A stretch of 64,000 bases of DNA from Eledone cirrhosa. Taxonomy: Eukaryota. The position numbers and the translations under genes were made by a program. Shown here piece by piece: positions 1 through 63,310 of the stretch (positions are counted from its first letter, which is position 1; every line of letters starts with the position of its first letter). Below the pieces are notes generated by a model that was given only the letters and a program-made list of their open reading frames with translations, was not told where the DNA came from and ran no database searches. The DNA lies in assembly GCA_964016885.1 (NCBI GenBank), contig OZ024747.1, positions 80,538,001 to 80,602,000 on the forward strand, written 5' to 3'.

Positions 1-582
1 TAAGGGCAGTGAACCAGTGGCCTCTGAGGGACGAACTGCTAGAAAGGGCAGTCCAAAGCCACTCAGAGAAGTGTGCTCAACCAAACAGAGTTAGGAAAGA
101 CTGTTATTAGGAGCGAAATATCACGATAAATTAACGGAGGCATAGGCCCTCGCTAGCGAGGGCCTATGCCTCCGTTAATTTATCGTGATATATATATATA
201 TATATATATATATATATATATATATATATATATATATATATATATATAGTATAAAAAAACAAAAAATCAGTGATACATCTGGACTCAACTTATTGCGTGT
301 TACAATTGTTTCGCCGGCAGGTAGCTCGAGACACGAACTACCCGTGGTGTCTGAAGGACCTGCAGCCGTAGAATCAGCCAGATCCATACAGGGACCATGT
401 CTCAAGCCTCCTGCTGGCGAAACAATTGTAAAACGCAATAAATTGAGGCCAGATGCATCACTGATTTTCGTTTTTTATACTATCCACACTCTACTCTGTT
501 GAATATTGAGTGCTAATTTTGGTATACCGCCTATGGAAGCACCATAGCTACCATTATACACAAGTATATATATATATATATA

Positions 583-763
583 ACGAAGGAAATGTGGTAA
601 GGAACCAGGTGGACCATAACGCACCAAAGTACTCAATACTTAGGGTAGTAGAGTGGGTAATAGGAACCAGTAAGACCCCGACGGCTGAGCTCAAGCCATT
701 TCGACGGCTAATTAGCCGTCGAAACGGCTTGAGCTCAGCCGTCGGGGTCTTACTGGTTCCTAT
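583..763. repeat. (TA)n-flanked fold-back unit family A (other copies 10373-10545, 61799-61986)
   Basis: Shared tail GTGGTAAGGAACCAGGTGGACCATAACGCACC..TAGGGTAGTAGAGTGGGTAATAGG plus a ~100-bp hairpin. Confidence 0.9.
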
Positions 764-1239
764 ATATATATATATGTATATTATACACAAGTATATATAT
801 ACACAAGTATATATATATATATATATATATATATATATATATATATATATATATATATATATATATATGTATTTATACATTTATATACATATATATATAT
901 AATATCTCTCTCTCTCTATATATATATATATATGCATGTATGTCTGTCTGTATGTATGTATACATACATATATACATGTATCTGTGAATGTATGTATATA
1001 TGTGTGTATGTATACAGAGAGAGAGAGAGAATGAGAGACCGGTTATCTCAGCTATATTTATAAATATACGCATATTACATGGCTCTTTTGTTATACGTGT
1101 ATGTCGAAAAAAATGAAAAAAATATTCTATGTGAGGTTTAAAGTTAAAAGTGATCTGAGCTTTCTTCTCTAGACACAGACCTACAAATTTTGATGGCGAA
1201 CGCCATTCATTTCTCAAACTTTCATTATTATTGCCTGAT

Positions 1240-1668
1240 AAAATAAACTACCAGTAATACACTGGGATAATTGCTGGCCTTGTGCCAAAAGTAGAAACAA
1301 TTATTATTACAAGCTTATATAATTTGGAAGAAAGGCGGTGAATTGGCAATATCAGTAGAGGGTTGGACATGTTTTCCAGCATAGCTACGTACCTTTACTA
1401 TCTGAGTTAAAATCCCGCCGAAGTTAACTTTGCCTTTCATCCATACGGGGTCGATAAAATAAATTACCAGTAATGTACTGGGTATTTACTGCTCTTGTGC
1501 CAAAAGTAGAAACAATTATTTGCAGCATATAATTACGGCCTTTTACGGTCCGAGTTCTAATCCCGCCGAGGTTAACTTTGCCTTTCATCCTTACGGATTC
1601 GATAAAATAAAGTACCAGTAATGTACTGAGATAATTGCTGGCCTTGTGCCAAACGTAGTAACAATTAT
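1240..1668 (+). mobile_element. Tandem cluster of ~190-bp tRNA-derived SINE family 1 (tail-only, full copy 1334-1520, head-truncated copy)
   Basis: A-box-like GGCGGTGAATTGGC, B-box-like GAGTTCAAATCCCG (family consensus), central TTTGCCTTTCATCC..GGGGTCGATAAAA..AGTACCAG (Meta-domain-like), tail GGCCTTGTGCCAAAAGTAGAAAC(AATT). Confidence 0.88.
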
Positions 1669-61000: not shown

Positions 61001-61550
61001 TAGATACATTTATAAATAGGCAGTCTGTTGACACCGGTGAATACTGACCTGATCTCCCCCCCCCCACTTACTTTCTGTATCTGGATCTAAATGTGTGTGG
61101 CAGTGTTTATGTGCGCGCATTAATGTCCATATGCTTATGATAATAGTATATACACACATATATATGTGTGTGGGGGTGTATGTGTGTATGTATGTTCGTG
61201 GTTGTGTGTATGTTTATGCGTATACGCGCGTGTGTGTGTGAATGTACGTATATGTGTGAGTATATGAATGTGTGTATATATTTATTTTATATTTATATGT
61301 GCATACGTATTTTATCTGTAGATTATAAACATACAGAGACATTAGCCTTGAATTTCTGTATTTACATACATCTTTTTGGCATGCGTATGCATGTGAACAT
61401 ATATCTTTATGCATATCTGTGAACGAAGTTACTTACATATATATACACACACCTAACTGTATAAACTTTTTGTATTTTCATTGGTCAATTTGAACTCTGC
61501 TCCCAAACAGACCTGTAATTTTGAATTGTTGTTATTATCAATAAATATAT

Positions 61551-61705
61551 TTCATTATTTCTGAAGACGGCATATATATGTGTTTGGTATGTATATTTAA
61601 TTTTGATAGTTTGTATAATTTTGTATAATTTTGTACATAGATCTGTTGAATATGCATGCCAATTCTAACACATATATATCCTAGAAACGATCGTTAAATA
61701 ATGAA
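61551..61705 (+). ncRNA. Type I hammerhead ribozyme with ~115-nt stem II insertion
   Basis: TTCATTATTT-CTGAAGA-[ATATATATGTGTT...AACACATATATAT]-GAAA-CGATCG-TT-AAATAATGAA; perfect 10-bp stem I, palindromic minimal stem III. Confidence 0.85.
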
Positions 61706-63310
61706 CTTTTTTTGTTTAATATAAGGAACTGTTTCATTGTTTTATTCATTATTTTTTTAATATTTTATATATATATATATATATATATATATATATATAA
61801 CGAAGGAGTTGTCGTAAGGAACCAGATGGACCATAACGCACCACAGTACGCAATACTTAGGGTAGTAGAGTGGGTAATAGGAAAATGTATGACCCTGATG
61901 GCAGCGCTCAAGTCGATTCGACGGCTATTTCTGAATAACCGTCGAAACAGCCTGAGCTCTGCCGTCGGGGTCATATATTTTCCTATATATATATATATAT
62001 GCCTGTATAGTTATACATATGTCTAGCCACACACCACTTACATACTAGCACACATAAATGCACACACATAAAAAAAACACATAAACACACACATGTATGC
62101 ATGTTTGAATGTACACGGATACACACTGATACAAGAGCTCAAGAGGGTGCAACAAAAACATAGATACAGCTACATTTGTATACAGCATCGAACACACTGG
62201 AAAAGAACATTGTGGAGTTAGATGCATTTGTAGTCAACATCAAAATTCAATTAGAGAATTAAAACTCTAGACTCCAAAATGGACGAAAACATCACACGTG
62301 ACTGGTTTTTAAAATGTTTTCTTATTTATACTACTTTGCATTTTAATTTAGAAAGGTATCTCTCAGAAAAGAATTAGATCTAAAGATTCAAGACACACAC
62401 ACACACACACACACAAACACGCACATACACACACACACTCACACACACACACACACACACTCACACACACACAGCCTAACCCTGTATATAGATGTTTACA
62501 TATTTATAAATATATGTGTATATATACATGTGCACCACATATATATGTGTTACATTTATATATTAACATATATATATGTATATATGTTATATATATATGT
62601 TATATATATATATATATATATATATATATATATATATATATATATATATATGTGTGTGTGTGTGTGTGTGTCTTACATATGTTTATATATATGTGTATAT
62701 AAATCGACACCATCGTTTAACGTGCATACGTATATATATATATACATATATATATATATATATATATATGTGTGTGTGTGTGTGTGTGTGTGTGTGTGTG
62801 TGTTTAAATATAGCTATATATAAAATATAATAAATAAATGTTACCTGGATAGATTCGTTATGGAGCTCTAACGATTAAACCTACCCCAGCCTGCGACCAT
62901 ATATGGAAAAGACACATGGACTCATCTACAATATCGCAATGTTTGAGGAATAACAGACATATCTTGAAAAACAGAGTTTCTCTTCATTGCGAACCCATAG
63001 ACTATTCTCTACCTCTGCAAATTCTTTGAGGACAGAATGTCCAGCTGAGCAAATAGAAATGTTGACCCACACTAGGAGCCTATATGATTGTCATCACATC
63101 TCTCCATAGCTAGACATATTGGTAACAATTATTACTATCACACATTATGAGTGAACGAACCTTTAGTGCGGACATATTTTTGTCTACATACTGGTCGCCT
63201 TTATACACACTTGTTGTTTGTTTGTGTATATTTTCGCTGTTTCTTTACCTAAGGTTGCTATCATAGCGTTAACATCTGCATCTATACATCATCAGTGTTA
63301 TCATTATTAT

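Follow-up and report, generated by a model that had tools for sequence, protein, structure and literature searches.

Hairpins in a 64,000-nucleotide stretch of Eledone cirrhosa DNA (the window throughout) are very short insertions of Penelope-like elements (PLEs), the shortest that these elements make, and each was probably produced when two cDNAs, primed independently, were extended off the 5′ end of the element's RNA, itself likely capped, and end-joined head to head. Five inverted repeats described in a sequence-only reading of the window were all recovered (249-480, 663-760, 10376-10465, 29701-29793 and 61880-61983), and in each the right arm has the order GAAA-stem-UH-stem of a true hammerhead 3′ half (Table 1). 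The grammar that the reading saw as common to all five held for these right-hand 3′ halves but not for the whole arms, as the right arm at 246-483 also retains a candidate 5′ half and starts 84 nt above GAAA; of the (TA)n association, the hairpin at 29701 lacks (TA)n at its left edge.

Hairpins in the window and their parent element

The hairpins are asymmetric, with an 80-nt tail on one arm that the sequence-only reading had omitted; in family A copy 1, this tail matches the beginning of the 5′ UTR in tandem full-length units. Among seven further short palindromes of the window, judged by eye, no hammerhead half was identified, and of 311 matches in an Rfam scan, the 150 listed included no hammerhead and were headed by microsatellite and hairpin noise.

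Table 1. Hairpin arms and junctions in the window. Arm ends are counted relative to GAAA, negative values lying above it (-84, 84 nt above GAAA).
Feature	Position	Strand	Description
Family A copy 1, tailed arm (start site E2)	583..713	-	80-nt tail (583-661) and 3′ half hammerhead; 5′ end -11
Family A copy 1, tail-less arm (start site E1)	710..760	+	stem II 3′ strand, GAAA 721-724, stem III, stem I strand; predicted cut after 743; TTCC end abuts (TA)n
Family A copy 1, centre	710..713	.	AATT microhomology common to both arms; zero-loop junction
Family A copy 2, tail-less arm	10376..10405	-	stops at +11, within stem III
Family A copy 2, tailed arm	10406..10546	+	GAAA at 10424; tail 10468-10546
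Family A copy 3, tailed arm	61800..61933	-	5′ end -14; tail 61800-61877
Family A copy 3, tail-less arm	61934..61983	+	5′ end -10; GAAA at 61944
Family B, tail-less arm	249..334	-	5′ end -21
Family B, tailed arm	335..564	+	start -84; candidate core 351-358 (non-canonical 8-nt CYGANNGA, CTGAAGGA); stem I strand 346-350; GAAA 419; tail 481-564
Family C, tail-less arm	29701..29748	-	end about -6, with a few inserted bases
Family C, tailed arm	29749..29852	+	start -8; GAAA 29757; tail to about 29852
Family E palindrome	15795..15899	.	complete canonical hammerhead in each arm; + strand core 15852-15858; centre just above stem I; counter-example to the stem II rule

The hairpins' proposed PLE origin is borne out by the family A parent, in which an ORF encoding RT and a GIY-YIG endonuclease lies upstream of the same terminus. 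Tandem units of about 3.4-3.6 kb consist of repeat, tail, 5′ UTR and ORF, and in the terminal repeat a complete U3-A8 hammerhead fold precedes two fixed insertion ends, E1 and E2, separated by 80 nt. The single-ORF protein (P0001) carries YRDD at 340 (RT) and a C-terminal YIG at 598 (GIY-YIG), together with features of the Hydra clade: RWR at 27 (RWK-like), DKT in place of DKG at 109, no GxKF/Y, and, at 564, 662 and 690, a CxCX5C linker and CxxC and CxH motifs around conserved E and N. Insertion into (TA)n, inverted or tandem terminal repeats and the tail also agree with that clade. Because a Pfam scan of P0001 gave 0 families, the assignment rests on these motifs and on 402 unnamed or uninformatively named homologs; on this basis, the family A parent is best assigned to the Hydra-clade PLEs. 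An initial attribution to Neptune was dropped in favor of Hydra, which the motifs fit. Exact family A arm ends number 55,220 in the genome, where the hairpins occur by the tens of thousands and very short copies total roughly 10^5.

Contrary to the sequence-only reading, the families are related to one another. A and C have in common a UUGAAAA core, stem layout and tail; A, B and E have a common tail motif; C connects to A by sequence homology; and in two loci (L344, L340) the B terminus is followed directly by an ORF with homology to the family A protein, at 23-36% identity to P0001. Judged by this homology, B and C are relatives of the family A PLE.

Across 71 family A copies anchored without use of the core, the core columns were nearly invariant (U3 71, U4 70, G5 70, A6 68, A8 69, A9 69) except at position 7 (51 A, 10 G, 9 T, 1 C); only core columns were used, the 3′ columns (UH and stem I 3′ strand) being mis-registered in over half of the rows. 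The minimum-energy fold was a three-way hammerhead in 2 of 3 family A copies folded, and a second helix within loop II was predicted for two copies. The family A parent thus carries a predicted type I hammerhead, comprising core positions 3-9, GAAA, UH and three helices, and its U3-A8 variant was already known in PLE hammerheads (PMC4209133). For family B, a 5-bp stem I fits, the core is mostly 8 nt with position 4 often C, and 0 of 3 folds gave a hammerhead. For the Anolis element, cleavage was dispensable in vitro (PMC11167929).

The sequence-only reading had predicted a parent with an intact CUGANGA half. A parent with a whole hammerhead does exist, but its core is UUGANAA, which is why the CUGANGA search missed it: that search gave 45 matches, and the 30 examined were junction or chance sequences, one apparently unrelated, with no parent among them.

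Arm ends and the base added at them

Family A arm ends pile up at a YYAGTC motif in loop II, which we call initiator-like on the basis of the initiator consensus. Among 131 arms picked by their 3′ end alone, the per-nucleotide stop rate was 0.21 at -17 to -22 (52/251), 0.019 at -23 to -42 (6/321) and 0 at -43 to -54 (0/168 arm-nucleotides at risk). This wall is not razor-sharp, with 12 of 202 arms scoring -22 and 12 scoring -19, a spread that microhomology explains in part. Consistent with the breakpoint enrichment that had been proposed, the stem II/loop II region (-11 to -25) holds the ends of 68 of 100 arms in an unbiased sample, drawn from the first 14 Mb of one contig. The placement of inversions in stem II was therefore right as to the region for family A, but there is no single point, and most ends genome-wide fall in loop II (-12 to -22) rather than in the helix; even in the window, the left arm at 10373-10468 stops within stem III, while its tailed partner starts close to the wall in loop II, at -14 in the alignment or about -17 as judged by eye. 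In run X1, contig depth rises about 20-fold across the wall and the largest listed 5′ loose-end pile (49 contigs) sits at the A of YYAGTC, although X1 and X4 contigs come from one study, possibly of the assembly's own material, and transcription start cannot be read from them.

The stem II rule does not extend to the other families. In families B, C and E, unlike A, the stop precedes the entire ribozyme: its distance above stem I is about 28 nt in B and about 4 nt in C, and the E stop lies at stem I. In B, 12 of 60 listed arms (a denominator that retains about five mis-anchored rows) have their ends between -5 and +6 from the A of CCAGTG, and none in the next 13 nt above; in C, 0 of 63 arms end between -37 and -61. 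Below the wall, ends of both families are widely spread.

Copying of a cap leaves an extra G, and family A junctions carry an untemplated G. The parent reads T or C at -19. There, 75 G and 25 A were counted among the first 100 of 1,753 matches, whereas the next position up had 11 G and 26 A (Fisher P = 2e-6); with parent-like contexts dropped, the G:A ratio was 47:22 (P = 2e-4). All 40 fetched places with G at -19 were junctions and none was a long copy. Several of these junctions are joined straight to (TA)n, so no partner arm can supply that G. Across examined loci the junction base was G in 24, T in 15, C in 7 and A in 1, and the G excess was confined to ends at -18 (G in 11/24, against 6/25 at -17 and 2/12 at -19). 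Among ORF-bearing arms reaching the 5′ UTR, a set chosen by ORF start, 3 of 7 begin at the YYAGTC site (L175, L180, L183). Together, these DNA footprints make an RNA start and cap at YYAGTC likely, with transcription of family A presumably initiating at its A, inside loop II. Such an RNA would have just the ribozyme's 3′ half at its 5′ end and could not self-cleave at that end. A similar G would also arise from RT adding C at any template end, or from an RNA cut at the site.

Origin of the two arms

One tailed and one tail-less arm were present in 44 of 45 palindromes, and two tails never. As the sequence-only reading noted, family A outer stems differ from copy to copy and match inside a copy: both arms have the same diagnostic segment in 31 of 45 palindromes sampled without bias, whereas random pairing would give 11%. 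Two common subfamily variants are joined in 3 of the 45, and two further loci (L259, L060) also look chimeric; the arms probably derive mostly, though not universally, from the same RNA. We propose that the element's protein would nick both (TA)n strands, priming from E1 on one and from E2 on the other. For another PLE, in vitro work has shown RT starting at two internal sites that bound the tail, with priming from both strands (PMC11167929). The 58- and 138-nt cDNAs expected here would, to judge from the footprints, both run off the end of the RNA, frequently with a C added opposite the cap, and would then be trimmed and joined through microhomology or templated inserts. Target-site duplications are hidden by the (TA)n flanks.

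Fold-back of one cDNA at stem II with self-priming, the mechanism advanced in the sequence-only reading, would account for family A centers at stem II/loop II and for the matching arms of one copy. It needs a cDNA that reaches the stem II 5′ strand, with the loop as center; yet no such product occurred among the first 100 of 3,267 matches (89 read-through, 11 ordinary sense junctions), and none of the 131 arms ends on the stem II 5′ strand. Any form of self-priming makes one arm copy the other, whereas among 59 pairs (one of them counted twice) the tail-less (E1) arm reaches further 5′ in 29, the E2 arm does so in 11 and the two are level in 19. The tail-less arm is thus not a copy of its partner, and the other arm has 80 extra nt. 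With a few copies combining two subfamilies and the rule failing in B, C and E, fold-back is refuted as the main route and strikes us as extremely improbable. Amplification of palindromes as whole units, either MITE-like or as remobilised RNA hairpins, gains some support from relatives of 580-762, the best 38 of 40 scored aligning over nearly the full query at 97-100% and the 30 examined having the same center. That set, however, is the top of a similarity ranking, and 7 of the 30 share flanks, indicating segmental duplication; in unbiased samples, 53 of 56 centers (one from a family C copy) are distinct, in line with the sequence-only view that the palindromes were made insertion by insertion. 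The AATT zero-loop junction recurs in several subfamily backgrounds that also have other centers, as expected from repeated joining at AATT, and we judge whole-unit amplification very unlikely. A MITE identity was rejected on the same distinct centers and the asymmetric ends, conserved TIRs with fixed internal sequence being absent; a non-LTR retrozyme, with head-to-tail tandem units each bearing a whole hammerhead, was rejected because copies are arranged head to head and the short arms of family A have no 5′ half.

Two further explanations concern the wall itself. RT copying a long read-through RNA might stall where loop II of the folded ribozyme forms a sub-hairpin, with two stalled cDNAs then being joined; the second loop II helix predicted for two copies, the family A stop inside the ribozyme and full-length arms stopping at the same place all fit this. 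But RT would already have crossed the stronger stems I and III and a 9-bp stem II, the stop lies inside a weak helix strand rather than at its 3′ foot, the ribozyme lies downstream of the wall in B, C and E, and the G excess is specific to -18, which together leave a structural block unlikely. Alternatively, the RNA 5′ end at -18 could come from cutting, by small-RNA slicing or another nuclease, with C added by RT wherever it runs off. An equally sharp wall and an added base are predicted here too; what speaks against cutting is the match of the wall to initiator-like pyrimidine-A motifs in both A (YYAGTC) and B (CCAGTG) and, in the available text on Drosophila Penelope, a promoter and initiator within the terminal repeat (PMC2377424). 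We hold cutting to be as improbable as a structural block, and favor run-off of two cDNAs at a capped start.

Possible strand transfer and known systems

Under this run-off reading, a cDNA might also jump to the RNA 3′ end through a 41-nt repeat extending from start site to ribozyme cut, speculatively giving rise to longer copies and new promoters. Retroviruses and LTR elements behave comparably: minus-strand strong-stop DNA is primed near the RNA 5′ end, runs off at the cap and meets a short repeat present at both RNA ends. LTR-like strand transfer is plausible in PLEs; its footprint, G at -19 in long arms, was found at 0 of 40 places, and tail-anchored arms did not accumulate at the ribozyme cut (about 1 of 21). 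More tentatively, and with our own expectation leaning against it, PLE replication as a whole could be target-primed and retrovirus-like: strong-stop DNA made near the cap would have to jump to a ribozyme-cut 3′ end via the 41-nt R-like repeat, the palindromes would be failed jumps, and a promoter within the family A ribozyme would mean that only the 3′ copy cuts. Retroviral first-strand transfer is tRNA-primed and accompanied by integrase; here, priming would be from the target, with two primers and no integrase, and the transfer itself is proposed. In L1 twin priming, both target strands prime cDNA and microhomology joins the products into an inversion; those cDNAs copy different parts of the RNA, whereas here both copy the same part, hence a palindrome.

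Hydra-clade PLEs (Craig et al. 2021, PMC8557442) resemble family A in their RWK-like, DKT and CxCX5C motifs, C-terminal GIY-YIG with CxxC/CxH flanks, (TA)n targets, hammerhead, inverted 5′-truncated copy and tail at one end. They differ in unit length (generally under 3 kb, against 3.4-3.6 kb) and tail length (30-40 nt, against 80 nt), and family A is set apart by its U3-A8 core and by about 10^5 very short copies that have fixed 5′ ends in place of variable truncation. Poseidon of Anolis in vitro (Frangieh et al. 2024, PMC11167929) likewise has two internal RT start sites bounding the tail, nicking and extension of both target strands, and an AT-rich target; in the available text of that paper, no strand difference in start site was seen, whereas E1 here pairs with E2 almost always, and 5′ ends, run-off products, cap and head-to-head joining are not treated. 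PLE hammerheads (Cervera and de la Pena 2014, PMC4209133) are also type I and in the terminal repeat, with a U3-A8 covariant core and opposite-strand motif pairs 100-700 bp apart; cleavage, circularisation and rolling reverse transcription are proposed there, whereas the arms described here look copied from a linear capped end, and the family A start would split the ribozyme.

If our reading is true, the hairpins would mark the RNA start and suggest how PLE ends are rebuilt. The genome then offers on the order of 10^5 natural reaction products, with base-level predictions of the RNA start, of E1 and E2 use on opposite strands and of the repeat needed for transfer. Such hairpins should then be annotated as aborted PLE insertions, not as MITEs or microRNA precursors, and the 5′ wall would provide a DNA-only route to predicting PLE promoters. 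Should the target-primed, retrovirus-like model also be true, it would account in a single model for how pseudo-LTRs are regenerated, for partial tandems and for what the hammerhead does.

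Hairpins in the window and their parent elements

Positions are counted from the G of the hammerhead GAAA (position 0; upstream negative). Insertions have two fixed outer ends, E1 and E2, and the 80 nt between them are called the tail. All five inverted repeats noted by the sequence-only reading are present, with right arms of the form GAAA-stem-UH; the sequence-only description leaves out the extension of one arm of each hairpin into the tail. Because the GAAA-stem-UH motif alone is frequent (47 matches on the forward strand and 46 on the reverse strand of the window), its meaning depends on finding a parent. 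The other near-perfect palindromes of the window, several of which adjoin (TA)n, are probably the same head-to-head product from other families. Families A, B and E have a motif in common within their tails, a possible protein-binding site or downstream promoter element.

Features of the window
Feature	Positions (strand)	Remark
Family A hairpins	660-763; 10373-10468; 61877-61986
Family B hairpin	246-483
Family C hairpin	29701-29793
Short palindrome	15795-15899	complete canonical hammerhead in both arms; one example of further short palindromes
Other near-perfect palindromes	122-187; 14653-14707; 15517-15726; 17012-17068; 17452-17882; 31405-31536
PLE ORFs, three more	44960-47272 (-); 55978-58059 (+); 6060-7136 (+)	family A protein homologs, 34-45% identity
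Canonical CUGANGA...GAAA hammerhead candidates	8659, 8877, 48358 (+); 9168, 10096, 31258, 47402 (-)	other repeat families; more exist
Tail motif of families A, B and E	503; 639; 5267; 10489; 15928; 61856

Stepping upstream from family A relatives led to a parent element with a 3′ UTR of ~800 nt and a reverse transcriptase (RT)-endonuclease ORF. One genomic copy, L281, has an uninterrupted frame of 710 residues carrying RWR, DKT, YRDD, CxCX5C, YIG, CxxC and CxH and lacking GxKF/Y, a combination given for the Hydra clade in the accessible text of PMC8557442. Tandem units run from terminal repeat to tail, 5′ UTR and ORF; the tail therefore opens the 5′ UTR. Exact family A arm ends number 55,220 in the genome, and 13 tailed arms within 400 kb of arbitrarily placed stretches extrapolate to ~10^5 insertions. 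Seven family A copies (L004-L009 and L012, six of them on contig 18) share identical flanks, the mark of either a segmental duplication or a repeated unit of larger size. At L037 and near 5267 (-) in the window, family A-like and family E arms appear to be fused into hybrids.

A motif search for the expected parent with a CUGANGA core found none. Long family A copies instead carry the stem I strand followed by UUGANAA; among 71 copies anchored by their flanks only, core positions 3-6, 8 and 9 are invariant in 68-71, and position 7 is variable. U3-A8 is a described PLE hammerhead variant (PMC4209133, accessible portion). Folding gave a three-way hammerhead in two of three family A copies, its stem II 9 bp long and its loop II 31 nt, and the predicted hammerhead is thus whole in the family A parent. 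The core recurs in family C, where stem II is compact; for family B there is only an 8-nt candidate.

A wall at the arm ends

Among the first 100 family A arms on contig 1, selected by 3′ end alone, 68 end at -11 to -25 and 14 extend past -70; the interval from -43 to -55 holds no end. Exact extension of 131 arms gave per-nucleotide stop rates of 0.21 (-17 to -22), 0.019 (-23 to -42) and 0 (-43 to -54). The proposed enrichment of breakpoints is thus real, but it takes the form of a wall in loop II, below which ends are trimmed, and not of breaks in stem II. This wall falls on the A of TTAGTC/TCAGTC, a sequence that resembles an initiator. Depth of contigs from sequencing run X1, whose type is not on record and which is possibly not independent, rises ~20-fold across the wall and drops >100-fold after E2.

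The family A wall has the look of a template end. At -19 the parent has T or C. Among the first 100 of 1,753 matches, however, arms that start at -18 are preceded by G in 75 cases and by A in 25; one base further up the counts are 11 G and 26 A (p = 2e-6). Forty of these -18 start places, including nearly all with parent-like contexts, were fetched, and all are junctions, some straight to (TA)n. The usual explanation for such an extra base is a C added opposite the cap, for which literature searches gave no source. Of seven arms that carry the ORF and extend into the 5′ UTR, three begin at the wall site. Junctions carry short microhomologies and templated inserts, the pattern of microhomology-mediated end-joining.

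Stem II also fails as a general breakpoint rule. In family B the wall falls on the A of CCAGTG (-104), which lies ~28 nt above stem I, and 22 of 60 among the arms listed go past it; family C has no ends at -37 to -61, with 5 of 63 arms passing; family E arms, judged by eye, have nothing in common above stem I. The half-hammerhead look is thus set by the place of the RNA end and the extent of trimming. Arms of two other hammerhead families viewed, both among those with candidates in the window, mostly reach well above the core.

The sequence-only reading had cDNA snap back and self-prime at stem II. The product that this predicts is absent from the first 100 of 3,267 matches, and none of the 131 arms ends on the strand required to fold back. 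Pairing was examined for 76 E1 arms, 17 of them without a near partner; in the 59 paired insertions the tail-less arm is the longer one 29 times and the tailed arm 11 times, with 19 ties, and therefore neither arm was copied from the other. These three results together refute snap-back at stem II.

Two probable primers, mostly on one RNA

Among 45 unbiased palindromes, 44 have one tail, one has none and none has two, whereas independent choice of ends would predict half to be mixed. A diagnostic segment matches exactly between the two arms in 31 of 45 (11% expected by chance); in 11 a rare variant sets the arms apart, and 3 palindromes join two common variants. The pairing points to two primers, in most events on one RNA. 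Palindrome centres are distinct in 53 of 56. The accessible part of Frangieh et al. (PMC11167929) describes in vitro reactions in which two internal start sites bound the tail and both strands were extended; the genomic pairing of E1 with E2 goes beyond that result.

In L229, L257, L259 and L060 the arms of one palindrome come from different subfamilies, which suggests that a minority of events used two RNA templates. Nineteen tailed arms in the unbiased family A pairs stop short, above 0: six at +39 to +48, the E1 start, and six at +17 to +27, near the predicted cut. This is a weak hint of a collision between the second RT and the first, or of cleavage of part of the RNA.

Implications for PLE RNA

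If the RNA start is real and cleavage leaves E1 and E2 only near the 5′ end, long copies could arise only by way of a jump or a circle, or from read-through RNA that escaped cleavage. We looked for a strand-jump footprint and for a pile-up of ends at the ribozyme cut and found neither, so the jump step stays hypothetical.

Inverted terminal repeats, short palindromes at 5′ ends and an initiator-like motif in the repeat are on record for PLEs (PMC3846280, in the text accessible). We found no description of a fixed G-marked 5′ wall or of strong-stop palindromes in PLEs in the open literature, which excludes subscription papers (the main PLE reviews among them) and repeat databases; start sites and consensus sequences for short elements might be listed in supplements, which lie outside this scope. 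The term 'strong-stop' is absent from the PLE papers turned up by one literature search. The hairpins are real and belong to a known class of element with a known overall architecture; new here are a testable mechanistic footprint and the refutation of the mechanism first proposed. If the RNA start is real, family A RNA would have half a ribozyme at its 5′ end and a whole one at its 3′ end, and cleavage would leave E1 and E2 near the 5′ end only; both ends would share a 41-nt repeat, which in copy L276 spans 5262 (start) to 5302 (cut).
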